Below, piece by piece: positions 15,794 to 61,996 of a stretch of 64,000 nt of DNA. Both the position numbers and the translations under genes were made by a program. Numbering within the stretch: the first letter of the stretch is position 1; every line of letters starts with the position of its first letter. The stretch spans positions 2,459,849-2,523,848 of the forward strand of contig OY781067.2 of assembly GCA_963676265.2 (NCBI GenBank), in the 5' to 3' direction. The notes beneath the pieces were generated by a model. The model ran no database searches, was not told the DNA's origin, and saw nothing but the letters and a program-made list of their open reading frames with translations. The DNA is from an uncultured Draconibacterium sp. GTDB taxonomy: Bacteria > Bacteroidota > Bacteroidia > Bacteroidales > Prolixibacteraceae.

Positions 15794-16834
15794 ATGATGG
15801 ATTTTAAAGCTACAGACATTGCCGCTTTTTTAAACGGAGAATTAGTTGGAGAGGGTAATGTAAAAGTATCTAATGTTTCGAAAATCGAAGAGGGAAAACC
15901 GGGAACTCTTGCATTCCTGGCTAATCAGAAATATGAGAATTACATTTATACCACCAAGGCTTCTATTGTCTTAGTGAATAAAAGTTTTGTCCCTAAAAAA
16001 GAGATTTCCGCTACACTTATAAAAGTAGATGATGCCTACGAATCGTTTGCTTCGCTTCTTGAATTGTACATGCAAACAAGAATGTCGGTAAAAATTGGAA
16101 TTGAACAACCAAGTTACATTTCTGAAGAAGCCACTACCGGAGAAGACATCTATGTTGGAGCCTTTGCTTACATTGGTAAAAAAGCACAAATTGGCAACAA
16201 TGTAAAAATATATCCACAGGTACATATAGGTGAAAATGTAAAAATCGGTAACGATTGTATTATCTATGCCGGTGTAAAAATTTACGACGATTGTATTATT
16301 GGTGATCGTTGTATTATTCACGCCGGTGCGGTAATTGGGTCGGATGGTTTTGGATTTGCACCTCAAAAAGACGGCGCTTACAAAAAAATTCCGCAGATTG
16401 GCAACGTTGTACTTGAAGAAGATGTTGAAATAGGAGCCAATACAACTGTTGATTGTGGAACTATGGGATCAACTACCATCAGAAAAGGAGTAAAACTCGA
16501 TAACCTGATACAAATTGCCCACAACGTGGAAATTGGACAAAATACTGTAATGGCGGCACAAACCGGTATCTCAGGCTCAACTAAAGTTGGACAAAACTGC
16601 ATGTTCGGAGGCCAGGTTGGTCTTGCCGGACATATTACAGTTGGAGACAAAGTTATATTGGGTGCACAGTCGGGAGTAGGTCAGAGTTTAAAAAGCGACC
16701 AAACATTGCTTGGATCTCCGGCTTTCGATATAAAAAAGGCAGTTAGAGCTTATATGCTTCTAAAAGAGCTTCCTCAAATGAGAATGGACATACAACAACT
16801 CAAAAAACAGATAAACACAAACAACGAAAAATAG
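15794..16834 (+). CDS. lpxD: UDP-3-O-(3-hydroxyacyl)glucosamine N-acyltransferase
   Basis: 346 aa. Left-handed beta-helix hexapeptide repeats and an N-terminal LpxD-type domain. First gene of the lpxD-lpxC/fabZ-lpxA cluster. Confidence 0.9.
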
Positions 16835-16844
16835 TATAATTCTT

Positions 16845-18236
16845 ATGGTTGTTAAACAAAAAACACTTAAGAATCCGTTTAAAATTGAAGGCAAAGGTTT
16901 GCATACCGGGGTGAATGTAACTATGAATTTCCTTCCGGCACCTGTTAATCATGGATTCAAATTTAAACGCGTAGATTTAGAAGAACAGACAATAATCCCG
17001 GCAGATGTCGATCTGGTTATTGACACATCTCGTGGAACCTTGCTGGAAAAAGACGGAGCCAGAATCGGAACAATAGAACATGCCCTTGCTGCTTTAACTG
17101 GCATGGACCTGGACAACGTATTAATTGAAGTGAACAACGAAGAGGCCCCGATAATTGACGGAAGCTCGAAATATTTTGTTGAAGCAATCGAAAAAGCGGG
17201 AATAGTTGAACAGGACGCAGAGCGTGACTACTTCGAAATAAAAGAAAAGATTGAATACTTCGACGAAAAATCCGGTTCGCATATTATTGCTCTACCTGAT
17301 GAAAGTTATAGTCTGAATGTAATGATTTCATTTCCTTCTGCTGTATTGAATAATCAATATGCATCGTTGGAACACATCAGTGATTTTAAAACAGAAATTG
17401 CAGAATGCAGAACATTTGTATTTCTGAGGGAAATCGAATTCCTTTTAAATCACAACCTTATAAAAGGCGGAGATCTTAACAATGCCATTGTCATTATCGA
17501 TAAGGAAATAAGCCAGGAAGAACTCGACAGGCTTGCCGACTTAACCAATCATCCAAGGGTAGAAGTTAAACCTCAGGGTATTCTTAACAACCTTGAACTT
17601 CATTTCGACAATGAATGTGCCCGCCACAAATTGCTGGATGTAATTGGAGATTTGGCTTTGCTTGGGAAACACATAAAAGGACGAATTATTGCTACTAAAC
17701 CTGGACACGGGCCCAACACTGCTTTTGCCAAAGTTTTAAAGAAACATTGGAAAAAAACAATCGATGCAGCCCCTGTTTACAATCCGGGTGCTGAGCCAGT
17801 GATGGATGTTAATAAAATCAGAGGACTGCTTCCTCATCGATATCCTTTTTTACTGGTTGATAAAATTATTTCTGTTACAGAAAATGAAATTATTGGAATT
17901 AAAAATGTAACAGTTAACGAACCTTTTTTCCAGGGTCACTTCCCCGAGGAACCTGTAATGCCTGCTGTACTTCAGATAGAAGCCATGGCTCAAACCGGAG
18001 GATTGTTGGTTTTAAACCAGAAAAAAGGCAAATTTTCAACCTATTTTATTCGCATAGATAATGTTAAGTTCAGAAAGAAAGTAGTCCCCGGAGACACGCT
18101 CATTTTTAAATTAACATTAACTTCGCCAATTCGTAGAGGTATTGCCAATATGAAAGGTGTTACTTATGTTGGAGATAAAATAGTATCTGAAGGCGAATTT
18201 ATGGCCCAGATTGTTAAACAAGAAGAAAATAATTAA
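16845..18236 (+). CDS. lpxC/fabZ: Bifunctional UDP-3-O-acyl-GlcNAc deacetylase / 3-hydroxyacyl-ACP dehydratase
   Basis: 463 aa. N-terminal LpxC ([17 protein letters not shown]) is fused to a C-terminal FabZ hot-dog domain ([20 protein letters not shown]). This fusion is typical of Bacteroidota. Confidence 0.92.
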
Positions 18237-47900: not shown

Positions 47901-48203
47901 TAATGCTACCCCACAGTTTAATGCAGTTTGCCCGCCAAATGCAAGAAGAATCCCCTGTGGTTTTTCCTTTTTAATTACCTCTTCAACAAAGTGAGGAGTA
48001 ACAGGGAGGAAATAAATTTTATCTGCAATATTTTCCGAAGTCTGGATGGTTGCAATATTCGGATTGATTAAAACCGTTTCAACACCTTCTTCTTTCAAGG
48101 CTTTCAGTGCCTGTGAACCCGAATAATCAAACTCACCGGCTTCCCCGATTTTTAGGGCTCCCGAACCAAGAACAATTGCTTTTTTAATATGTGTATCTAT
48201 CAT
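44970..48203 (-). CDS. carB: Carbamoyl-phosphate synthase large subunit
   Basis: 1077 aa with duplicated ATP-grasp halves and a C-terminal MGS-like domain. Confidence 0.97.
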   Translation of the reverse strand: MIDTHIKKAIVLGSGALKIGEAGEFDYSGSQALKALKEEGVETVLINPNIATIQTSENIADKIYFLPVTPHFVEEVIKKEKPQGILLAFGGQTALNCGVALFESGVLEKYNVEVVGTPVQSIIDTEDRDIFANMLGEIGVKTPKSIAASNMAEAKAAAKEVGFPIIIRAAYTLGGLGSGFCENEEELEKLAGSAFSYSPQILVEESIKGWKEVEYEVVRDKFDNCITVCNMENFDPLGIHTGESIVVAPSQTLSNSEYHKLRAISIKIIRRVGVIGECNVQFALDPNSEDYRVIEVNARLSRSSALASKATGYPLAFVAAKLGLGYGLHQLKNSVTKVTTACFEPALDYCVVKIPRWDLSKFVGVSKNIGSSMKSVGEIMAIGRNFEEAIQKGIRMVGLGMHGFVGNREEITIEGIEEELVNPTDRRIFAIAEAFNKGYGIDEIYDKTKIDKWFLQKLNNIYKIKQELQAINKLDELPIPLLKAAKQTGYSDFQVARLVMKSSNTEINNDLLKVREYRKANDVIPVVKQIDTLAGEYPAQTNYLYLTYNGSENDVHYFGDQKSVIVLGSGAYRIGSSVEFDWCSVNTINTIKEEGYRSVMINYNPETVSTDYDTCDRLYFDELSFERVMDIYDLENPHGVVVSMGGQIPNNLAMKLHGQNVHVLGTSPVKIDNAEDREKFSSLLDNLGVDQPRWARLSTIEEIHKFVDEVGYPVLIRPSYVLSGAAMNVVSNPDQLEHFLEMAANVSKEHPVVVTEFIEQAKEIEIDAVANNGEMVAYAISEHVEFAGVHSGDATIVFPPQKLYVETIRRVKKIAREIAKGLEITGPFNMQFLAKDNDIKVIECNLRASRSFPFVSKVMKINLIEIATKVMLGIDVPKPDKSLFELDYVGVKAPQFSFARLLKADPVLGVDMSSTGEVGCIGESYYEAILKAMLSVGYNFPKKNILISSGPSRGKLELLNSARMLVEKGFNIYATEGTHKFFRDNGIENTLIHWPDEEGQSPNTIEYIKEKKIDLVINIPKNHTKRELKNGYAIRRSSIDYNIPLITNARVASAFLYGVCKYSLEDIKIKSWDEYKA

Positions 48204-48215
48204 GATATTTTTTTT

Positions 48216-48257
48216 GAATTTCGAATTATGATTAACGAATTAAGATTTCAGATTTAT
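48216..48257. repeat. Heptad-periodic arm (GAWTNNN)x6 between carB and the four-helix-bundle gene
   Basis: The + strand reads GAATTTC GAATTAT GATTAAC GAATTAA GATTTCA GATTTAT, with G at 48216 plus 7n. Confidence 0.85.
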
Positions 48258-48267
48258 CATTCAATTG

Positions 48268-48642
48268 TTACTTGTTTTTATTACTTTTGGCCGTTTCAAT
48301 ACTTTTCACGAAGATCGATATCAACTCATTATTCTCATTGTAACAATCATCAAGCAAATCCATATTTTTGACCAACCCCGAATGTTTAACTATTTTTATT
48401 GCAACAAAAGTTTCTCTTAATTCTTTTAAACAAACACTCATTTTATGAATAAAGTCGTTTTTACTTTCAGCACCTTGTGCTTCGCCATAGTTAAGTGCAG
48501 GTGAAGTACCTGATCTAACGATTTGACCTTTCATATGATTGCCGATTGGAGAATTTGGAAGCAAATCTGCAAACCTGATAATCAGGGCTGCGAATCTTAT
48601 TAATCTTTCCTCCAAATCAAACTTATTCATATCTGCAATCAT
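48268..48642 (-). CDS. Four-helix-bundle protein, 23S rRNA intervening-sequence protein family (Avd-like)
   Basis: ORF 48268..48645 has a TTG first codon; ATG is at 48642. QIVRSGTSPALNYGEAQGAESKNDFIHKMSVCLKELRET matches the family core (RS..S...N..E......DF......KE..ET). Confidence 0.8.
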   Translation of the reverse strand: MIADMNKFDLEERLIRFAALIIRFADLLPNSPIGNHMKGQIVRSGTSPALNYGEAQGAESKNDFIHKMSVCLKELRETFVAIKIVKHSGLVKNMDLLDDCYNENNELISIFVKSIETAKSNKNK

Positions 48643-48665
48643 CAATCGTTAATCGTCATTCTGCG
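48631..48665. repeat. Heptad-periodic arm (WTCNNNN)x5 between the four-helix-bundle gene and carA
   Basis: The + strand reads ATCTGCA ATCATCA ATCGTTA ATCGTCA TTCTGCG. 48646-48661 is the inverted complement (14/16) of 48223-48238. Confidence 0.8.
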
Positions 48666-48673
48666 GTTCAAGC

Positions 48674-49753
48674 TTATTTTTTGCTCTCTTCAATATTTTT
48701 AATAAACTCGTCGAACAGGAATTCTGTATCAACAGGTCCACTCGACGCTTCGGGGTGGAACTGCGTAGAAAAGAAAGGTTTGCTTTTATGCCTGATCCCT
48801 TCGTTAGTATCGTCGTTTACGTTGGTAAAAAGCGGCTCCCAATCCGAAGGAAGAGTTTCTGTTCTAACAGCAAAACCATGATTTTGTGAAGTAATGTAAC
48901 ATTTGTTGGTTCCTTGCAGCAATACCGGCTGATTGTGGCTTCGGTGTCCGTATTTCAGTTTGTAAGTTTCAGCGCCGGCAGCAAGGGCCAGCAACTGGTT
49001 CCCCAGACAAATTCCCATAATTGGTTTCTGATCGCCAATCACCGATTTTATATATTTTACAGTTACATCGCACATAGCAGGGTCGCCCGGGCCGTTTGAA
49101 ACAAAAACTCCATCGTAATCTTCTTCGGTGAAGTCGTAATCCCATGGCACACGAATTACAGTAGCTCCCCTGTCGAGCAAACAACGGATAATATTGTTTT
49201 TAACACCGCAGTCGATTAAAACAACCTTGTGTTCTCCATCGCCATAAACTTCACGCTCTTTGCAGCTGGCAACGGCAACCAGGTTTTCTTTGTTGGGGTC
49301 GTAAAAATCAATTTCGTCATCAAATTCAATTTTTCCGAGCATCGATCCTTTCTCACGTAAAATTTTTGTTAAGGCTCGCGTATCGATATCAAATAAACCC
49401 GGAACATCGTATTCTTTTAACCAGTCGCTCAAACTTTTTTCAGCATTCCAGTGACTGAATTCAAATGAATAATCGGATATAATTAAACCGGTAATATGCA
49501 GTTTGTGAGACTCGTAATATTTGTGAATACCGTTCTCTCTTTTGTTGAAAGGAACACCATAGTTTCCGATCATCGGGTAGGTCGATACCAGAATCTGACC
49601 GGTATAAGACGGATCTGTCAAACTCTCCGGATAGCCCGTCATTGCTGTATAAAAAACAACCTCTCCGGCTACCGCTTTCTCGCTTCCAAACGATTTCCCC
49701 GTAAAAACGGTTCCGTCTTCAAGTGTTAATTTTGCCTGTTTTACTTTGTACAT
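48674..49753 (-). CDS. carA: Carbamoyl-phosphate synthase small (glutaminase) subunit
   Basis: 359 aa. Class I amidotransferase catalytic Cys in GICLGNQLL and FHPE near the C-terminus. Confidence 0.95.
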   Translation of the reverse strand: MYKVKQAKLTLEDGTVFTGKSFGSEKAVAGEVVFYTAMTGYPESLTDPSYTGQILVSTYPMIGNYGVPFNKRENGIHKYYESHKLHITGLIISDYSFEFSHWNAEKSLSDWLKEYDVPGLFDIDTRALTKILREKGSMLGKIEFDDEIDFYDPNKENLVAVASCKEREVYGDGEHKVVLIDCGVKNNIIRCLLDRGATVIRVPWDYDFTEEDYDGVFVSNGPGDPAMCDVTVKYIKSVIGDQKPIMGICLGNQLLALAAGAETYKLKYGHRSHNQPVLLQGTNKCYITSQNHGFAVRTETLPSDWEPLFTNVNDDTNEGIRHKSKPFFSTQFHPEASSGPVDTEFLFDEFIKNIEESKK

Positions 49754-49938
49754 ATTCCGATTTAATAATTAAAAAAAATGCGCTTGCCCTAAAATAGTTC
49801 AAACGCATTTCAGTTACCTTCCTTACATATTTTTAAATACACTTTCTTTCTCATAGAATGATAAGAACATGAAGTTAAAATCATTTTCCGCTGCAAAAAT
49901 AGAAAATATTCTCAAATTTTTCTGTTTTATTTCATCGA

Positions 49939-49977
49939 AATGCATATTTTTGCATCAATAATGAATATTTATTCAAT
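49939..49977 (+). promoter_or_regulatory. Tandem ARG boxes (ArgR operator) overlapping the argR promoter -7 box and start codon
   Basis: Box 1 (49939-49956) is AATGCATATTTTTGCATC. Box 2 (49960-49977) is AATGAATATTTATTCAAT, a perfect TGAAT-N4-ATTCA core. The two 18-bp boxes are separated by 3 bp, the classical spacing. Box 1 contains TATTTTTG (49945-49952, TAnnTTTG) and box 2 ends in the argR ATG. Confidence 0.75.
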
Positions 49978-50461
49978 GAAGAATAAAGCACAACGTCAAC
50001 TGGAAATAAGAAGAATCATTCAAAAAGGCAATGTTCACAGTCAGGAAGAGTTGCTACATGAACTAAAAGAAAATGGATTCGACTTAACACAGGCGACTTT
50101 ATCGCGCGATTTAAAAGTTTTACAGGTTGCCAAAGTTCCTCATCCGGCAAAAGGATATGTATATACCGTACCTGATGGCGGACAGTATGAAAAAGCAAAC
50201 AAAGCAGAACAAAATCGCGTAAATTACCTGGCTGACGGTTTTAAAGACCTTCAGTTTTCAGGTACCCTGGCAGTAGTAAAAACACTTCCGGGTTATGCAA
50301 GCAGTATTGCAGCAGTTATCGATCAGGCAAATCCCTGGGAAATAATAGGGACAATTGCCGGCGACGATACAATACTAATAATACAAAGAGAGGGAATATC
50401 GAAAAATGATTTAATGAGGGCATTAATACAAATAATGCCCAAGCTTAAAGAGAAATTGTAA
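49976..50461 (+). CDS. argR: Arginine repressor
   Basis: ORF 49940..50461. The start is taken at ATG 49976 (MKNKAQRQLEIRRII). Winged-helix N-terminus (TQATLSRDLK) and C-terminal GTIAGDDTILII arginine-binding motif. Confidence 0.9.
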   Translation: MKNKAQRQLEIRRIIQKGNVHSQEELLHELKENGFDLTQATLSRDLKVLQVAKVPHPAKGYVYTVPDGGQYEKANKAEQNRVNYLADGFKDLQFSGTLAVVKTLPGYASSIAAVIDQANPWEIIGTIAGDDTILIIQREGISKNDLMRALIQIMPKLKEKL

Positions 50462-50469
50462 TTCGGACG

Positions 50470-51126
50470 ATGAAGAGTTTGAAAAATATCAAAGTTGAAA
50501 TTGCCGACGAACGTCATTTAAAGTTCATCGACGACATAAACGATGCCATCGACAGTGCATCGAAACAACGCGGAACGGGTATTGCCCGTCGTACGTTTGA
50601 ATACCTGGCAGAAAAAATGAAGCAGGGCAAGGCTATCATCGCTCTTGAGAACGAGACATTTGCCGGTTTCTGTTATATAGAAACATGGCAGGAAAAAGGT
50701 TTTGTGGCGAATTCAGGATTAATTGTGGCTGAAGAATTCCGTGGAATTGGTCTGGCAAAGGAAATTAAGAAAAAGGCTTTTGAATTATCGAGAAAAAAAT
50801 ACCCTAATTCAAAAATTTTCGGATTAACAACCGGGCTGGCTGTAATGAAAATTAACCACGAACTGGGTTATCGTCCGGTAACTTTTTCAGAGTTAACCAT
50901 GGACGATCAATTTTGGAAAGGCTGTCAGGGATGTGTTAATCACGACATCCTGGAACGAACCGGAAGAACAAAATGTCTGTGCACCGGCATGCTTTATAAT
51001 CCGGAATGGGAAAAACCAACTTTCACCAATGGTAACGGAATAAGAAAACGCAGTTTGCTTGATCTAATTCCGAAACGCGTATCTGGAATAACAAGAAAAA
51101 AAAAACTATTAAATAAAAATAAATAG
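50470..51126 (+). CDS. GNAT-family N-acyltransferase of the arginine operon (candidate N-acylglutamate synthase)
   Basis: 218 aa. GNAT motif A region VAEEFRGIGLAKEIKKKAF. Positioned between argR and argG as in other Bacteroidota arg operons. Substrate not determinable from sequence. Confidence 0.7.
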   Translation: MKSLKNIKVEIADERHLKFIDDINDAIDSASKQRGTGIARRTFEYLAEKMKQGKAIIALENETFAGFCYIETWQEKGFVANSGLIVAEEFRGIGLAKEIKKKAFELSRKKYPNSKIFGLTTGLAVMKINHELGYRPVTFSELTMDDQFWKGCQGCVNHDILERTGRTKCLCTGMLYNPEWEKPTFTNGNGIRKRSLLDLIPKRVSGITRKKKLLNKNK

Positions 51127-51208
51127 AATGGCGGCTTTCATATAGAAACAGACAGCTACAGATTTTGGAATTAGAAATAGCCGTCATTCTTTTTAAAAAT
51201 ATTACAAC

Positions 51209-52402
51209 ATGAGTAAAAAATTGGTTTTGGCATTTAGCGGAGGTTTAGATACTTCATTCTGCGCTAAATACCTGAAAGAAGAGAAAGGTTTTGATGTTTA
51301 CACCGCCATTGCAAATACAGGCGGTTTTTCCGATGAAGAACTTAAAGCCATCGAGGAACGAGCGCTGGCCCTGGGAGCTATTGAGCATGTTACACTTGAT
51401 GTAACCAACGAATACTACGAAAAATGTATTCGTTATATGGTTTTCGGGAATGTGTTGCGTAATAATACCTACCCTATTTCAGTTAGTTCGGAACGTGCAT
51501 TTCAAGCTATTGCAACTATCGAATATGCCAAAAAAATCGGTGCCAAATATATTGCTCATGGCAGTACCGGTGCAGGAAACGACCAGATTCGTTTCGATCT
51601 CACTTTCCAGGTTTTAGCTCCTGAAATTGAAATTATTACACCAACCCGAGATATGCTTTTAACCCGCCAATACGAAATTGACTACTTAAAAAAATATGGT
51701 TATGAAGCTGATTTCACCAAAATGGAATATTCCATTAACCAGGGACTTTGGGGAACCAGTGTTGGTGGAAAAGAAACATTAACCACCAATAAAAATCTGC
51801 CGGAAGCAGCCTACCCAAGTCAATTGGAAGAAACCGGCGAAAAAACGATTGAGTTGGGATTCGAAAAAGGCGAGTTGATTTCGCTTGATGGAGAATTCTA
51901 CGAAAGCGGCCCCGAAATTATTCGCGCACTCGAAGCAGTGGCATCAAAATTTGCCATTGGCCGCGATACACACGTTGGCGATACCATTATTGGTATTAAA
52001 GGCCGCGTTGGTTTCGAAGCTGCAGCTCCGCTGATTACGATTAAAGCGCACCACCTGCTCGAGAAACATACCTTAACCAAATGGCAATCGTACTGGAAAG
52101 AACAACTGGGCAACTGGTACGGAATGTTCCTGCACGAGGCTATGTACCAGGAGCCGGTTATGCGTAACATCGAAGATTTCCTCGAATCAACCCAGGAAAA
52201 TGTAACAGGAAAGGTAATTGTAAAACTAAAACCTTACCATTTCGAATTAGTTGGAATTGAGTCGGAACATGATTTAATGAACTCTGGTTTTGGCCAATAT
52301 GGCGAAACGGTTGAAGCATGGACTGCAGACGACATAAAAGGATTCACAAAGATTTTATCGAATTCACTGAAAATCTACAATAAGGTAAACAATAAGTTGT
52401 AA
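51209..52402 (+). CDS. argG: Argininosuccinate synthase
   Basis: 397 aa; AFSGGLDTS ATP-binding motif. Confidence 0.95.
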   Translation: MSKKLVLAFSGGLDTSFCAKYLKEEKGFDVYTAIANTGGFSDEELKAIEERALALGAIEHVTLDVTNEYYEKCIRYMVFGNVLRNNTYPISVSSERAFQAIATIEYAKKIGAKYIAHGSTGAGNDQIRFDLTFQVLAPEIEIITPTRDMLLTRQYEIDYLKKYGYEADFTKMEYSINQGLWGTSVGGKETLTTNKNLPEAAYPSQLEETGEKTIELGFEKGELISLDGEFYESGPEIIRALEAVASKFAIGRDTHVGDTIIGIKGRVGFEAAAPLITIKAHHLLEKHTLTKWQSYWKEQLGNWYGMFLHEAMYQEPVMRNIEDFLESTQENVTGKVIVKLKPYHFELVGIESEHDLMNSGFGQYGETVEAWTADDIKGFTKILSNSLKIYNKVNNKL

Positions 52403-52486
52403 GAATGTTGAATGATGATTAACGAATACTGATTTAAGAAGGAAAAATCTGAAATCAAAAATCGTTAATCTACAATCGTTAATCAA
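52403..52486. repeat. Gene-less 84-nt heptad-periodic inverted-repeat element filling the argG-argC spacer
   Basis: Twelve in-phase heptads: GAATGTT GAATGAT GATTAAC GAATACT GATTTAA GAAGGAA AAATCTG AAATCAA AAATCGT TAATCTA CAATCGT TAATCAA. It shares its 16-mer and 12-mer blocks with the carA-carB element. Confidence 0.85.
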
Positions 52487-53455
52487 ATGATTAAAGTTGG
52501 AATAATAGGAGGAGCCGGATATACAGCCGGAGAGTTGTTGAGAATTTTACTGAATCATCCGTTGGCAGAAATTGGTTTTGTCCAAAGTACCAGTAATGCC
52601 GGAAATCTGATCTCTGATGTTCATATTGATTTATTGGGCGAAACTGAAATCCGTTTTACCGATCAAATGCCGTTCGACGAAGTTGATGTAATTTTCCTTT
52701 GCATGGGGCATGGCAAGTCGATTGAATTTATGGAGAAAAATTCTTTCCCAAAATTTTTAAAAATTATTGATTTAAGCCACGACTTCAGGTTGAAAAGAGA
52801 AGGCAACAATTTTGTTTATGGCTTACCTGAATTAAATCGTGAAGATATAGAATCGTCGGAAAGAATTGCCAATCCCGGTTGTTTTGCCACCGGTATCCAG
52901 TTGGCTCTTTTACCACTTGCAGCAGCCGGATTATTACAAGATGAAGTTCATGTGCAGGCCATAACCGGGTCAACAGGTGCAGGCCAGAAACCAACAGCTA
53001 CTTCGCATTTCAGTTGGAGAAGCAGTAATGTTTCGGCTTACAAGATTTTTCAGCACCAGCACGAAGGAGAAATTCTGCAAAGCCTGACTCAATTGCAACC
53101 CGATTTTGAAAAAGATTTCAATTTTGTGCCCATCCGAGGAAATCACACACGCGGTATTTTTGTATCGTGCTATACCAAATTCGATGGAACGCTGAAAGAG
53201 GCTAACGAATTATATGAAGATTATTACGCCGGTCATCCGTTTGTATTTGTAACCGATAAAAACCCGGGAGTAAAACAAGTAGTAAATACCAACAAAGGCG
53301 TTATTTATTTGGAAAAACACGAAAATAAACTGGTTGTTATCAGTTTAACCGACAACTTAATAAAGGGCGCATCCGGACAAGCGGTTCAAAATATGAACCT
53401 GATGTTTGGGCTGGATGAAAAAACCGGCCTGAGTTTAAAACCGGTTGCTTTTTAA
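52487..53455 (+). CDS. argC: N-acyl-gamma-glutamyl-phosphate reductase
   Basis: 322 aa. GAGYTAGELLRIL NAD(P) motif and catalytic Cys in NPGCFATG. Confidence 0.93.
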   Translation: MIKVGIIGGAGYTAGELLRILLNHPLAEIGFVQSTSNAGNLISDVHIDLLGETEIRFTDQMPFDEVDVIFLCMGHGKSIEFMEKNSFPKFLKIIDLSHDFRLKREGNNFVYGLPELNREDIESSERIANPGCFATGIQLALLPLAAAGLLQDEVHVQAITGSTGAGQKPTATSHFSWRSSNVSAYKIFQHQHEGEILQSLTQLQPDFEKDFNFVPIRGNHTRGIFVSCYTKFDGTLKEANELYEDYYAGHPFVFVTDKNPGVKQVVNTNKGVIYLEKHENKLVVISLTDNLIKGASGQAVQNMNLMFGLDEKTGLSLKPVAF

Positions 53456-53614
53456 ATATTGCACCGTCCTTTAGGGCGGTGATCTGAAACAAGAAAGCAA
53501 GATGGCTTCAGCCTTTAACCATCAAAATTAAAGGCTAAAGCCAAAATGCAATGAATAAATCAGACACCAAGCTAAAGCATGGTGCAAAAAATAAGAACTA
53601 AAAAACAGGAACGA

Positions 53615-53635
53615 CTTCTGTCTTCCGACTTCAAG
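53615..53635 (+). repeat. (CTTCNNN)x3 array immediately upstream of argD
   Basis: CTTCTGT CTTCCGA CTTCAAG, with CTTC at 53615, 53622 and 53629. ATG is at 53638. Confidence 0.7.
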
Positions 53636-53637
53636 AT

Positions 53638-54777
53638 ATGAAACTATTTGACGTTTATCCACTATTTGATATAACCCCGGTAAAAGCTGAAGGATGTTAT
53701 GTTTGGGATGCCGACGGTAAAAAATACCTCGACCTTTACGGAGGCCATGCGGTAATTTCAATCGGACACAGCCACCCTGCTTACGTTAAAAAAATCTCAG
53801 AGCAGCTTTCTCAAATCGGATTTTATTCCAATTCGGTACAGAATCCTCTTCAAAAAGAGTTGGCTGAAAAACTAGGAAAATTATCCGGTTGCGAAAATTA
53901 CCAGCTTTTCCTTTGCAACTCGGGAGCAGAAGCCAACGAAAATGCATTGAAACTGGCATCTTTCATTACCGGTAAAAAGAAAATAATCAGTTATAAAAAA
54001 GGATTCCACGGTCGTACTTCGGCGGCAGTAGCCATCACCGATAATCCTAAAATTATAGCTCCGGTTAATGAAACTGAAAATGCTATAATATTGCCTTTTA
54101 ATGATATCAAGGCCACTGAGGAAGTATTGAAACAAGGCGATGTTGCCGCGGTTATTGTTGAGGGAATTCAGGGGATTGGCGGAATCCATGTTCCGGATAC
54201 CGAATTCCTGAAAAAACTGAAACAGTTAACCGAAAAATACGTGGCCGTTCTTATTCTGGATGAAATCCAGTCGGGTTACGGACGAAGTGGAAGATTTTTT
54301 GCTTACCAGTACACCGATATTCATCCCGACATTGTTACCATGGCCAAAGGGATGGGTAACGGATTTCCTATCGGCGGAGTACTTATTCAGCCAGAGATTG
54401 AGCCGTGGTATGGTATGCTAGGAACAACCTTTGGAGGTAATCACCTGGCATGTGCTGCTGCCATATCGGTTCTGGATGTAATCAAGGATGAAAAGCTGGT
54501 AGAAAATGCCGAAGAAGTTGGTTCTTACCTCATGGAAAAACTCTCGGCTATGAATGCAGAATTTGAGGTCCGTGGTGAAGGTTTAATGATTGGTCTCGAA
54601 TTTAAACAACCAATAAAAGAAATACGACAGAAACTACTTTTTGAATACGGAATATTTACTGGCGTTTCAGGACAAAATATAATCAGACTGTTGCCTCCGT
54701 TAAGTTTAACGAAAGAACAGGCTGATCAATTTTTGACTGCATTTGAGAAGGTTTATGCAGATTTCGATATTGTTTAA
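53638..54777 (+). CDS. argD: Acetyl/succinyl-ornithine aminotransferase (class III PLP aminotransferase)
   Basis: 379 aa; LILDEIQSGYGRSG and TMAKGMGNGFP (PLP Lys) motifs. Confidence 0.88.
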   Translation: MKLFDVYPLFDITPVKAEGCYVWDADGKKYLDLYGGHAVISIGHSHPAYVKKISEQLSQIGFYSNSVQNPLQKELAEKLGKLSGCENYQLFLCNSGAEANENALKLASFITGKKKIISYKKGFHGRTSAAVAITDNPKIIAPVNETENAIILPFNDIKATEEVLKQGDVAAVIVEGIQGIGGIHVPDTEFLKKLKQLTEKYVAVLILDEIQSGYGRSGRFFAYQYTDIHPDIVTMAKGMGNGFPIGGVLIQPEIEPWYGMLGTTFGGNHLACAAAISVLDVIKDEKLVENAEEVGSYLMEKLSAMNAEFEVRGEGLMIGLEFKQPIKEIRQKLLFEYGIFTGVSGQNIIRLLPPLSLTKEQADQFLTAFEKVYADFDIV

Positions 54778-58434: not shown

Positions 58435-58511
58435 AAGGCAAAAGTAAAAAGGCAAAATATAAACATTGGAAGCTAAAACTTCGGTCTTCGTGCTTCCATC
58501 TTCAAACTTAT
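58435..58511. repeat. Heptad-periodic spacer (AAGNNNN then NNCTTNN) between proA and argF'
   Basis: AAGGCAA AAGTAAA AAGGCAA AATATAA ACATTGG AAGCTAA | AACTTCG GTCTTCG TGCTTCC ATCTTCA AACTTAT. Confidence 0.75.
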
Positions 58512-58514
58512 AAT

Positions 58515-59462: not shown

Positions 59463-59506
59463 TTCTGCTACCTTTGAGGCCTTGCGGATGGAGAGAAATA
59501 AAAAAC

Positions 59507-60238
59507 ATGACCAAAAAAATAGAAATAATTCCTGCTATCGACCTGATTGACGCCAAATGCGTGCGACTTTCGCAGGGCGATTACAACCAGAAAACGGTGT
59601 ATAACGAGAATCCGCTGGAGGTTGCCAAAATGTTCGAAGATGCAGGAATCACACGTTTGCACCTTGTTGATTTGGACGGGGCAAAAGCTAAGCACATTGT
59701 AAACTATAAAGTACTGGAAACAATTGCCGGAAAAACCAATTTGGTGATCGACTTTGGCGGCGGATTAAAATCGGACAATGACCTGCAAATTGCTTTTAAC
59801 TCAGGGGCAGCAATGGTTACAGGCGGAAGTATTGCTGTAAAAGAGAAGGATACTTTTCTAAGCTGGCTGGAGAAATTCGGCAGCGAAAAGATTATTCTGG
59901 GTGCTGATGCCAAAGACGGTAATATTGCAGTTAGTGGCTGGCTGGAAACGACCGAATTGGCGGTTATCGATTTTATTTCAGAATTCCACAAACAGGGAAT
60001 CAGCAAAGTTATTTCAACAGATATTAGTCGCGACGGTATGCTGAGCGGTCCTTCTTTTGAACTGTATACTGACATTATGAAAACGCTTCCCGAAGTGGAA
60101 ATTATTGCCAGTGGCGGAATTGCCACCATGGACGACATATTAAAATTAGATGAAATGGGCGTTCCGGGTGTAATTACAGGAAAAGCCATTTATGAAAATC
60201 GCATAACTTTGAAAGAAATTGAAAAGTTCATTGCGTAA
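59507..60238 (+). CDS. hisA: ProFAR isomerase
   Basis: ORF 59474..60238. The start is taken at ATG 59507 ([13 protein letters not shown]). Motifs include HLVDLDGA and GGGL. Confidence 0.93.
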
Positions 60239-60249
60239 TGTAAATTTCA

Positions 60250-61155
60250 ATGAAAAAAGTATTCATTTCATCAACATATAAAGATCTAAAACATCATAGG
60301 ACGGAAATCTGGAAAAGGATCCAGAATTTAGATATTGAGGTTTTAGGGATGGAGAATTTTGGAGCTCGCAAAAGCTCTCCTCTTGAAACATGTCTTGAGG
60401 AAGTTGACAGAAGTGATATTTACATCGGAATTATTTCAATGTGCGCAGGTACAATTCATTCGGAACTTAAAAAATCTTACACCGAACTAGAATACCAAAG
60501 AGCACTTGAAAAAGGAAAAGACATCTGGATATATCTAATAGATGAGAATGATGGCGTTATAAAAGCTGGGGATATTGAATTTGGAGAACGGCAAGAATAT
60601 CTAAAAAAGTTTAAAGAGCGACTTAAGAGCCACACTGTTGATTTTTTTATTGATGAAAAAAACTTAGCAGAAAAGATATTTAAGAAACTCAAATCTGTCG
60701 CTCCTAAAATAAAAAAACTTGCAAAAAGACCCCAACAATTAGAATGCACCATTTTTAAATTTAAGTCCAAGAGATACAAATGGTACATATTTATGTCATT
60801 CTATAATCAATTACCTTACGAGATTTTTTCAGGTATTAATGATGACGATTATAATGGTATCCTGCTTCCTCAAAGTGTTTCAAATGGGATTGTTATAGAA
60901 AGTCAAGAGACTAAAAACATTAAACGCTATGACTTCCAGTATATTAATAAAAGAGGATACAAAACTACTTTAGAAGGAATCAACTATCCATTTATTCCAA
61001 CTATTTCTTCGTACGATAAACAAATCACAAAGCTGCTTCAAAACAATGTTTCGTTGTTGGTCATTTTGGAAGTTCTGAGAGAAATGCTCGTCGAAGATGA
61101 AGAACAAAAGATTTGGAAGAAGAATTTAACACAAATCATAAGAAGATTTAAATAA
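60250..61155 (+). CDS. Two-domain protein: N-terminal DUF4062 (TIR-like/flavodoxin-like) module plus a C-terminal module resembling the class II RNR C-terminal/TSCPD-type region
   Basis: 301 aa. N-terminus [19 protein letters not shown]...[13 protein letters not shown]...[24 protein letters not shown]-terminus [37 protein letters not shown]...[19 protein letters not shown]. Domain names are from memory and no search was possible. Sits 11 nt after hisA and 1 nt before hisF. Confidence 0.6.
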
Positions 61156-61156
61156 G

Positions 61157-61912
61157 ATGCTTGCAAAACGAATAATACCATGCCTCGATATCCGCAACGG
61201 ACAAACCGTCAAAGGAATCAATTTCGTAGATATTAAAGAAGTGGGCGATCCGGTGGAATTAGGCGCAAAATATGCTGCTGATGGTGCCGATGAACTTTGT
61301 TTCCTAGATATCACAGCGACACACGAAGGCCGCAAAACTTTTGTTGAACTGGTAAAACGTATTGCAGCACATATCAACATCCCGTTTACAGTTGGTGGTG
61401 GAATCAGCGAATTGAGCGATGCCGAAAAGCTATTAGCTGCAGGAGCTGATAAAATATCGATTAACTCATCAGCCGTTCGAAATCCAAAACTGATCGACGA
61501 CCTGGCACTGAATTTTGGAAGCCAGTTTGTGGTAGTTGCCATCGATGCGCGCGGCGATGAGAACGAACACTGGACAGTTACAGTAAACGGTGGCCGTATT
61601 CCAACCGACAAAGAATTATTTTCGTGGGCAAAAGAAGCAGAAGACCGTGGTGCGGGAGAAATCCTGTTTACCTCGATGAACCACGACGGAACTAAAAATG
61701 GTTTTGCCAATAAAGAGCTTTCGAAAATGGCCGATATGTTGAAGATTCCGATCATTGCATCGGGCGGAGCAGGTACCGAAGAACATTTTGTTGATGTTTT
61801 TACCAAGGGAAAAGCAGACGCCGGACTGGCTGCCAGTATCTTCCATTACAACGAAATACCAATTCCGGTTCTTAAGAAATACTTAAAAGAAAAAGGCATT
61901 GTAGTTCGATAG
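61157..61912 (+). CDS. hisF: Imidazole glycerol phosphate synthase, cyclase subunit
   Basis: 251 aa; [19 protein letters not shown] and SGGAG motifs. Confidence 0.96.
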
Positions 61913-61966
61913 CCAATCAAAATAGTAACTTCGCAGCACAATTACAGAATTAATAATTGCTCCGGG

Positions 61967-61987
61967 CTTCAGGCTTCGGACTTCCGA
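61967..61987 (+). repeat. (CTTCNNN)x3 array upstream of hisIE
   Basis: CTTCAGG CTTCGGA CTTCCGA, with CTTC at 61967, 61974 and 61981. ATG is at 61997. Confidence 0.7.
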
Positions 61988-61996
61988 CTAAAGATT

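Follow-up and report, generated by a model that had tools for sequence, protein, structure and literature searches.

The intervening sequences (IVSs) of bacterial 23S rRNA are the closest characterised analogue of the element analysed here, the 84-nt spacer between argG and argC (52403-52486) in a 64,000-nt stretch of the genome of an uncultured Draconibacterium sp. (contig OY781067.2; hereafter the window, numbered from its first nucleotide), and of a related cassette that fills the carA-carB gap about 4 kb away. In Coxiella burnetii, the IVS carries an open reading frame (ORF) for S23p in the loop of a 28-bp terminal-inverted-repeat stem, which is cut by RNase III (PMC4990558). The carA-carB cassette resembles the IVSs of C. 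burnetii and Leptospira in holding a PF05635 gene, for a 23S rRNA-intervening sequence protein (IVP; the family is also known as S23p or Avd-like), in the loop of an inverted-repeat stem, and the IVSs are further comparable to the window elements in being sporadic among close relatives and in sitting inside a host transcript without destroying its function. Short IVS stem-loops that lack an ORF, of the Salmonella and Yersinia types, also exist; in the window, the terminal-inverted-repeat stem surrounds a PF05635 ORF in the carA-carB copy, and the argG-argC copy consists of the arms only. The rRNA IVSs, however, occupy helices 9, 25 or 45 of 23S rRNA, whereas the window elements fill the stop-to-start gap between cistrons; no rRNA was found in the window with Rfam, and both elements lie between protein-coding genes. 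The arms in the window also differ in being 7-nt periodic with about six ordered units, and RNase III cutting is considered here by analogy only. We propose, with a probability of roughly 0.7, that the spacer between argG and argC represents an intercistronic PF05635 cassette in its ORF-less form, acting through the mechanism set out below.

Heptamer repeats located beside genes are the other group of comparable elements, the cyanobacterial STRR repeats being an earlier-described example. Rehm et al. (2015) reported intergenic GGGAATC and GGGGA(C/T)T repeats in Xanthomonas and Nostoc, which are transcribed, sometimes form inverted pairs and are of unknown function; the G-rich strand is on the coding strand less than 50 bp past stop codons, and its complement is found just upstream of start codons (PMC4692102). 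These repeats and the arms in the window share the 7-nt unit, the GAWT(C) core and the stop/start polarity, the GAW units of the spacer starting at the first nucleotide past the stop codon and its ATC units ending 2 nt before the ATG. The repeats of Rehm et al. are near-perfect tandem simple sequence repeats (SSRs) with G-tracts, proposed G-quadruplexes and a preference for four units, and no link to PF05635 was reported (PMC4692102), whereas the Draconibacterium arms have no G-tracts, are built of ordered, non-identical heptads and prefer six units. As no GGG run is present in the spacer, it lacks the four or more G-tracts of a G-quadruplex. MacGregor (2015) described direct TAACTGA repeats that precede start codons in Beggiatoaceae, Cyanobacteria and Bacteroidetes (PMC4679880). 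Like the arms, these are heptamers a few nt before start codons in the same phyla, and a post-transcriptional role involving S1, Csp or CsrA has been proposed for them, but the heptamer is a different one, the repeats are nearly all direct with one inverted case, and no associated gene was reported (PMC4679880).

The argG-argC spacer divides exactly into twelve heptads, GAATGTT GAATGAT GATTAAC GAATACT GATTTAA GAAGGAA followed by AAATCTG AAATCAA AAATCGT TAATCTA CAATCGT TAATCAA, as the first-pass annotation of the sequence had proposed. That annotation regarded the spacer as a gene-less copy of the carA-carB element because of local matches, all of which were reproduced: the stretch 52410-52425 agrees with 48223-48238 at 15/16 positions, and also at 15/16 with 48646-48661 read as the reverse complement; 52445-52456 matches the reverse complement of 48244-48255 without a mismatch, and 52473-52484 recurs unchanged at 48643-48654. 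Its suggestion of a genuine 7-nt period also withstood comparison with 20,000 dinucleotide-preserving shuffles, the signal being well above chance. The self-identity of the spacer was 0.58 at lag 7 and 0.63 at lag 14, against 0.31 +/- 0.05 in the shuffles; its lag-7 value was not attained at that lag in any of the 20,000 shuffles, and when all lags of 2 to 21 were allowed, a fraction of 5e-5 attained it. A sliding scan along all 64 kb showed the strongest period-7 stretches to be nearly all intergenic, with the spacer and both carA-carB arms among the six strongest and the 3' arm of the carA-carB cassette (48216-48257) in first place. All occurrences of (GAWTNNN)3GAWT in the window fall within the four arms that make up the two elements' flanks. 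The earlier statement that the heptads stay in phase throughout the spacer is exact for this copy but does not extend to its relatives, as the spacer of another Draconibacterium lineage, L001, is 83 nt long through loss of one central A and the offset between the arms differs in the metagenome locus L129; the canonical trait is six heptads per arm, rather than one phase across the whole spacer. The centre of about 17 nt, placed by the first-pass annotation where the ORF sits in the other copy, does not exist: the six-heptad arms overlap by 2 nt and leave no loop (Table 1). A repeat search of the spacer returned 30-nt inverted arms, 8 nt apart and 77% complementary.

Table 1. Positions of the two elements, the genes flanking the spacer and nearby CTTC heptads in the window
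Feature	Position	Strand	Description
argG (argininosuccinate synthase), upstream cistron	51209..52402	+	Pfam PF00764, PF20979; TAA stop 52400-52402 abuts 5' arm
5' arm of ORF-less cassette	52403..52444	+	GAATGTT GAATGAT GATTAAC GAATACT GATTTAA GAAGGAA; starts at first base past argG stop
3' arm of ORF-less cassette	52443..52484	+	AAAAATC TGAAATC AAAAATC GTTAATC TACAATC GTTAATC; ends 2 nt before argC ATG
Core GATTAACGA	52417..52425	+	pairs with TCGTTAATC at 52462-52470; alternative register 52476-52484
argC (N-acetyl-gamma-glutamyl-phosphate reductase), downstream cistron	52487..53455	+	Pfam PF01118, PF22698; ATG 2 nt past 3' arm
Full cassette filling carA-carB gap (5' arm, IVP gene, 3' arm)	48204..48673	-	31-nt inverted repeat 48223-48253 / 48631-48661, 81% complementary
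IVP gene, PF05635 23S rRNA-intervening sequence protein / TIGR02436 four helix bundle protein	48268..48630	-	120 aa, ATG 48630
5' arm of carA-carB cassette	48627..48661	-	car-operon sense GAATGAC GATTAAC GATTGAT GATTGCA GATATGA; overlaps IVP start codon
3' arm of carA-carB cassette	48216..48257	-	car-operon sense AAATCTG AAATCTT AATTCGT TAATCAT AATTCGA AATTC..., then A-run, carB ATG
CTTC heptads before argD, ATG 53638	53610-53634		CGACTTC TGTCTTC CGACTTC
CTTC heptads before OTCase-like gene, ATG 58515	58479-58510		AAACTTC GGTCTTC GTGCTTC CATCTTC
CTTC heptads before hisIE, ATG 61997	61961-61985		GGGCTTC AGGCTTC GGACTTC

Read in the sense of their operons, both elements have the layout stop-(GAWTNNN)n, an IVP ORF or nothing, and (NNNAWTC)n-ATG. 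Because the reverse complement of a GAWT array followed by an AWTC array is the same arrangement, this polarity is a property of the DNA element and not of the direction of transcription. The IVP encoded in the carA-carB cassette, which starts at ATG 48642 and has 124 aa in public databases, matched Pfam PF05635 (E=2.5e-10) and NCBIfam TIGR02436 (E=1.7e-20). Its AlphaFold model consists of four helices (pLDDT 92.9), and the best fold matches of the model were 2RLD (BT_0352), 2GSC (XCC0516) and Avd (4DWL/8UB7), the accessory protein of diversity-generating retroelements (DGRs). The model superposed on DGR Avd (4DWL, 8UB7) with TM scores of 0.73-0.82 at a sequence identity of about 10%, which places IVP in the same fold and superfamily as Avd. 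PADLOC gave no defence-system match for the IVP. On the plus strand inside the IVP ORF (48537-48561), three to four in-phase GAWT-type heptads, GATTGCC GATTGGA GAATT.., are present and conserved in the relatives L001 and L002; this run may be due to chance or may reflect the coded peptide PNSPIGNH.

The general formula of the arms is (GAWTNNN)6 for the 5' arm and (NNNAWTC)6 for the 3' arm, the two being mutually complementary. The 5' arm of the spacer fits an ordered six-heptad consensus derived from 24 independent IVP left arms, with GATTAAC as heptad 3 and a heptad 6 that begins with GAAG. The 9-mer GATTAACGA has nine exact copies in the window, and all five non-coding copies are inside the two elements; the search for further element copies with this 9-mer yielded none in the window, the remaining exact matches being chance occurrences in coding sequence. 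Across 11 ORF-less copies, which come from four contig groups, neither arm showed any variation in this core, and it was found at a fixed position in 17/80 metagenome IVP cassettes (among the matches listed). The sense RNA of the spacer was predicted to fold with -20.2 kcal/mol (z = -3.0), and the perfect 9-bp stem of the predicted fold is formed by GATTAACGA and TCGTTAATC. No Rfam family matched the window at gathering thresholds, and a permissive scan of 48150-53700 gave chance-level matches only, none of them on the elements. No terminator-like site, i.e., a GC-rich stem with a T-run, was found in 52200-52700, and promoter-like matches were only at the level of shuffled sequences; an intrinsic terminator or attenuator and a promoter were rejected on these grounds.

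The argG-argC spacers of relatives, obtained through IVP and ArgC homologues, were compared with that of the window. The element recurs there, and the junction exists in three states. The window, L001 and D. orientale (L003) have an ORF-less hairpin of 83-84 nt at argG|argC and an IVP cassette at carA|carB; Maribellus luteus (L004) likewise has an IVP cassette at carA|carB, and its argG|argC junction of 323 nt contains two hairpin copies. In L206, L207/L208 and L209, an IVP gene lies within orthologous arms at argG|argC, a junction of about 490 nt in these relatives from metagenome assemblies, and carA|carB has no IVP. D. sediminis (L210) and strain Z1-6 (L211) have a single nucleotide between argG and argC (TAG-G-ATG) and 26-27 nt resembling the end of a right arm at carA|carB. 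L209 is an uncultured Draconibacterium whose ArgG and ArgC together are 91% identical to those of the window. The right arm of L207, AAAAATCTGCAATCGAAAATCGTTAATCTGCAATCGTTAATCAA-ATG, was 44/47 identical to that of the window and had the same ...GTTAATCAA-ATG ending, and the left arms at the occupied junctions of L207 and L209 are orthologs of the spacer's left arm. These occupied and empty states, together with the shared polarity and the arm consensus, bear out the initial idea that the spacer is the carA-carB element minus its gene. At carA|carB, L207 retains a solo right arm and L209 a faint trace, and L206 has nothing. The first 30 nt or so of argC are invariant among the relatives, including the element-free ones.

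No remnant of IVP coding sequence was detected by tblastn, beyond noise, in the ORF-less spacers, including the 323-nt spacer of Maribellus; with neither an ORF nor a coding remnant, the spacer was classified as an ORF-less derivative of the cassette. Comparison of the empty TAG-G-ATG sites of L210 and L211 with the occupied TAG/TAA-GAAT...AATCAA-ATG sites revealed no target-site duplication, except possibly a single G. The gene calls, which extended over 9-10 kb around the locus, included neither a transposase nor a recombinase or reverse transcriptase in any relative. The hairpin was present only in genomes that keep a clustered IVP (window, L001, L003 and L004) and absent from the IVP-free L210 and L211. 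The IVP proteins fall into carAB-type and argGC-type clades, with 63-70% identity between and 77-97% within the clades, a pattern which suggests a common ancestor with both paralogues and differential loss afterwards. The phylogeny used here was built from two proteins of nine genomes. In the Maribellus luteus spacer (L004/L005, 5893-6215), one hairpin copy is located right after argG and another right before argC; the middle of about 180 nt has no IVP remnant and contains the GC-rich palindrome CTCTCCCTCATTCCCTCTCTTCCCGAAGAGAGGGA.

The spacer was 80/84 identical to that of D. orientale and 82/83 identical to that of L001 (95-98% among the three Draconibacterium lineages), whereas the 4-fold degenerate sites of argG and argC were 49-59% identical between the window and D. 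orientale; were each site identical with a probability of 0.55, a match of 80/84 would have a probability of about 1e-16. No conservation was seen in the argC-argD spacer among the window, L001, L003 and L004. The carA-carB cassette behaved differently in the two comparisons. Between the window and D. orientale, its IVP gene had 73% nucleotide identity, with third positions at 0.45, and its arms had diverged to 32/47 and 46/78 identical positions. Between the window and L001, the cassette had only 6 mismatches in 470 nt (1.3%), with IVP third positions 0.98 identical, while the carA and carB flanks differed at about 13% of positions up to position -4 and again from +12, so that the boundaries were sharp (6/470 inside the cassette versus 67/500 in the flank; Fisher p = 2e-14). 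Near-identity that is limited to the cassette and includes 98% of third positions cannot be explained by selection at the protein level, and it points to a recent cassette-limited replacement at carA-carB. The near-invariance of the argG-argC spacer in the three lineages speaks for either constraint, possibly recognition by the carAB-encoded IVP, or recent exchange of the kind seen for the cassette.

To see how far the architecture extends, IVP loci were collected by a back-translated search with an IVP alignment, which yielded at least 80 metagenome loci encoding proteins 44-69% identical to the window IVP; 71 of the loci listed had readable flanks, and the counts below, which represent one IVP subfamily and crude ORF calls, refer to the matches listed. 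None of the 80 loci had carA or carB beside the IVP gene. A significant lag-7 array was present on at least one flank in 61/71 and on both flanks in 45/71, mean best-window identity being 0.66 at lag 7 and 0.42-0.47 at other lags, and the upstream and downstream flanks were complementary to each other in 53/71. The longest in-phase run of GA heptads had its mode at six on either side (24/67 left arms and 25/67 right arms), and runs in the opposite polarity were mostly 0-2 heptads long. The arms are not plain tandem repeats: independent loci share the ordered consensus GAtTtan GAaTaan GATTAAC GAaTTTT GATTTta GAAGTat, and within each heptad a 3-4-nt core is conserved and the other positions vary. 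The right arm of the spacer, as reverse complement, was 38/42 identical to the right arm of L166, an unrelated metagenome cassette. The left arm started a median of 6.5 nt after the upstream stop codon, and within 4 nt of it in half of the loci. In L129, four ORF-less units were located by pattern, and by reading, the 1.4-kb intergenic region at 960-2370 consists of about eleven tandem units of about 100 nt, one of which has an IVP ORF. The outer part of each right arm in L129 is also complementary to the outer part of the next left arm, so that alternative pairings between neighbouring units are possible.

A pattern scan for (GAWTNNN)4GAWT with one genome per species gave at least 120 loci, and the following holds among the matches listed. 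The hosts included Cyanobacteria, Bacteroidota, Acidobacteriota, Verrucomicrobiota, Planctomycetota, Patescibacteria, Chloroflexota, Xanthomonas, Lysobacter and others, and near-perfect heptamer SSRs made up the majority of the arrays; those of Xanthomonas and Lysobacter were caught because the unit of Rehm et al. contains the GAWT(C) core. A GAWT array was followed by an AWTC array in 31/120 loci, usually with a loop of 8-60 nt. In co-directional spacers, arrays with GAWT in the sense strand adjoined the upstream stop codon (22 versus 4, median 20 nt) and those with AWTC in the sense strand the downstream start codon (24 versus 8, median 14.5 nt), a polarity supported by a Fisher test (p = 6e-6). 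IVP genes beside the arrays were sought by scanning 117 small ORFs that flank GAWT arrays with Pfam, and with a hidden Markov model of the IVPs of close relatives. An IVP gene was directly at the array in 3/120 loci, in Mucilaginibacter, Saprospiraceae and Fimbriimonadaceae, and all three had the layout stop-arm-IVP-arm-start. The assumption that every GAWT array marks an IVP gene was therefore dropped; ORF-less arrays far outnumber gene-bearing ones.

The proposal that the spacer is an ORF-less PF05635 cassette starts from the kinship of the two window elements, their common architecture, the occupancy polymorphism of the junction and the unusual conservation of the spacer, all of which are observed in the comparisons above. 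We favour a history in which the IVP cassette was ancestral at argG|argC and the lineage of the window's Draconibacterium lost the ORF and kept the arms; in the alternative direction, the hairpin came first and the ORF was gained later. The first-pass annotation had listed an empty site, an excision scar and a stand-alone structured or protein-binding RNA as possible natures of the gene-less copy; the last of these may apply, and the strong conservation favours some constraint on the spacer. We infer a function of the element in the arg operon. It would be co-transcribed with that operon, and its arms would pair into an imperfect stem of about 30 bp with the perfect 9-bp core, which would bring the argG stop codon beside the argC start codon. 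By analogy with the 23S rRNA IVSs, the stem would be a likely site of RNase III processing or insulation, and the G-poor, A/U/C-rich 3' arm would serve as a leader directly upstream of argC.

Several results weigh against parts of this proposal. With respect to an RNA stem, the more stable predicted fold is that of the spacer's antisense strand (-23.7 kcal/mol, z = -5.7), so that pairing could act at the DNA level or the arms could merely be inverted repeats by descent. The alignment of the 11 ORF-less copies showed no covariation, since the core pairs are invariant, and a test for selection on the sense RNA in 57 IVP stems showed no excess of G.U over A.C pairs (89 versus 75, p = 0.31). D. 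sediminis, the sister of D. orientale with 97% identical ArgG and ArgC, and strain Z1-6 lack the element at argG|argC, which argues against an essential role. ORF loss and ORF gain each needed four events under simple parsimony on the nine-taxon tree, and loss is preferred only because the argGC-type IVPs appear to be vertically inherited.

The spacer might instead be kept as a selected cis-regulatory site, an explanation that shares the origin just proposed and differs on why the element is retained. Its six GAWU or its six AWUC units would be bound as single strands, in 7-nt register, by an oligomeric or multi-domain protein such as the carAB-encoded IVP pentamer, ribosomal protein S1 or cold-shock proteins, and binding would gate the 3' arm for initiation at argC. 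The motif-type conservation, with a 3-4-nt core in each heptad and variable positions between, the modal arm length of six units, the contrast between the spacer and neighbouring 4-fold sites and the co-occurrence of the hairpin with a clustered IVP all agree with such a site. Avd, the only characterised family member and one on which the IVP model superposes well, is a barrel-shaped pentamer with positive charge and binds a structured RNA element (bioRxiv 10.1101/2023.10.23.563531), and S1, Csp or CsrA were already proposed as binders of start-proximal heptamer repeats (PMC4679880). However, an arm of six units is at odds with an oligomer of five subunits (the deposited structures 2RLD and 2GSC have five chains each), two close relatives manage without the element, the co-occurrence comes from six genomes and could be explained by linked loss, and the carA-carB arms diverge quickly between the window and D. 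orientale. We regard this explanation as possible but doubtful. A mobile hairpin resembling a miniature inverted-repeat transposable element (MITE), in which the similarity of the spacers reflects recent horizontal or homing-like transfer of an 84-nt unit with no purifying selection and no role in the operon, appears rather unlikely. MITEs and repetitive extragenic palindromic (REP) elements are comparable in that a short hairpin is related to a longer gene-bearing element, in presence/absence polymorphism, in tandem amplification as seen for the ORF-less units of L129, and in terminal inverted repeats, which the window elements have. The variation of a single junction among very close relatives (1 nt, 84 nt or about 490 nt), the near-identity of the carA-carB cassette between the window and L001 and the presence of cassettes in more than 80 different contexts would all be accounted for by such mobility. 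Nevertheless, occupied and empty sites show no target-site duplication, the full form encodes only a 120-aa four-helix bundle and neither a transposase nor a RAYT, no mobility gene of the kinds sought was called near any locus, and the window element is placed exactly between stop and start codons. Unless some form of homing is assumed, it is difficult to see how one unit could have inserted three times independently at the same nucleotide. The argG side, moreover, diverges normally up to the stop codon, from which it follows that ordinary homologous recombination did not carry the hairpin in.

That the spacer is an SSR produced by slippage, unrelated to IVP and similar to the carA-carB flanks by chance, is highly improbable. 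Heptamer SSRs are common in intergenic regions across phyla, as the 120 or more loci of the GAWT scan illustrate, and the great majority of these arrays have no IVP beside them. A plain slippage SSR is contradicted, however, by the non-identical heptads, whose ordered series is common to independent IVP cassettes, and by the orthology of the arms to the occupied site in relatives; the spacer is also far more conserved than neutral sites, whereas SSRs are hypervariable. Hardly any weight can be given to an arginine-specific operator, i.e., ArgR boxes or another DNA site of the arginine regulon. Both window copies do lie in a car/arg cluster that begins with argR, and the left arm of the spacer holds TGAATGATGATTAA, which is loosely similar to TGAATWWWWATTCA, but no match to TGAATWWWWATTCA with up to 2 mismatches occurs within either element, the same arms flank many unrelated genes and adjoin neither carA nor carB in the listed metagenome loci, and relatives drop the element and keep the operon. 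Identity with an ARG box is contradicted as well, the perfect box, at 49962-49975, being outside both elements.

If the ORF-less PF05635 cassette of the arg operon is one instance of a wider class, PF05635 genes with six-heptad inverted arms could be widespread selfish intercistronic cassettes, in effect IVSs of mRNAs, which enter, leave or are exchanged exactly in the gap from one stop codon to the following start codon. Solo arms and derivatives without an ORF would then form part of the heptamer repeats in Bacteroidota and perhaps other phyla, and an Avd-like IVP oligomer would recognise the arms by their 7-nt register when the cassette is processed, maintained or mobilised. We put this generalisation forward tentatively; under it, the argG-argC spacer would be a trans-dependent satellite of the carAB-encoded IVP. 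DGRs differ in composition: up to 9-10 kb away, none of the loci examined here had a called reverse transcriptase or a pair of template and variable repeats. Our literature search found no description that connects heptad-periodic arms, a position between cistrons or derivatives without an ORF with PF05635 genes, and the heptad-armed PF05635 cassettes are apparently an undescribed family, the rRNA IVSs and heptamer repeats themselves being already known.

The spacer joins three questions: the role of the PF05635/TIGR02436 family, the nature of gene-adjacent heptamer repeats and the tolerance of selfish inserts in essential operons. The family has thousands of members and structures from 2006-2007 but no known function outside DGR Avd, and the gene-adjacent excess of heptamers, described in 2015 for GGGAATC/GGGGAYT and TAACTGA, is still unexplained. 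The design found here is nearly constant from stop to start, with six ordered heptads, a gene and six complementary heptads. The argG|argC junction provides a natural allelic series of 1 nt in D. sediminis and 84 nt in D. orientale, both cultured, and about 490 nt in metagenome relatives, and the cassette-limited similarity points to active exchange. This architecture, the allelic series and the signal of exchange make binding, RNase III processing and translational effects directly testable in the arginine operon. If the link between arms and IVP generalises, annotation pipelines could recognise the arms, and many intergenic SSRs would be cassette remnants.

Other features of the window were recorded alongside the two elements. 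A second type of heptad, (NNNCTTC)n, lies directly upstream of three start codons (Table 1), and 58435-58514 and 61913-61996, which include two of these arrays, were the only other spacers of the window with a lag-7 p<0.01. The CTTC array before argD is present in L004, L206, L207, L209 and L211 and absent from L001, L003 and L210. Because an IVP at hisA|hisF in L209 has arms of the GAAG/CTTC type, the CTTC arrays may be solo right arms of another cassette subfamily. That IVP (16786-17109) is a distant PF05635/bAvd-like gene, the third in L209, with a weak match to PF22296 (bAvd). In the window, a gene for a 301-aa DUF4062 protein (60250-61155, +) lies between hisA (59474-60238) and hisF (61157-61912), which indicates that this junction takes different inserted genes in different relatives.

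In the divergent region between carA and argR, a perfect ARG box core, TGAATATTTATTCA, is present at 49962-49975, and a copy with 2 mismatches is located 92 nt upstream, at 49870-49883. The perfect box is inside the mechanically called argR ORF (49940-50461, 173 aa); as ArgR of the relatives has 159-166 aa, the true argR start is probably downstream. In the GNAT-argG spacer (51127-51208), AATGGCGGC ... GCCGTCATT form a long-range inverted repeat, which L001, L003 and L004 retain with changes that partly compensate each other; it is possibly a conserved stem upstream of argG and is unrelated to the heptad arms. The argC-argD spacer (53456-53637) is 182 nt long in the window and 86-95 nt long, with unrelated sequence, in L001, L003 and L004. 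Two features of this spacer, a terminator-like stem that lacks a T-run, CACCGTCCTTTAGGGCGGTG, and a second period-7 hairpin, GGCTTCAGCCTTTAA...TTAAAGGCTAAAGCC, at 53504-53552, recur in the 215-nt spacer of L209.

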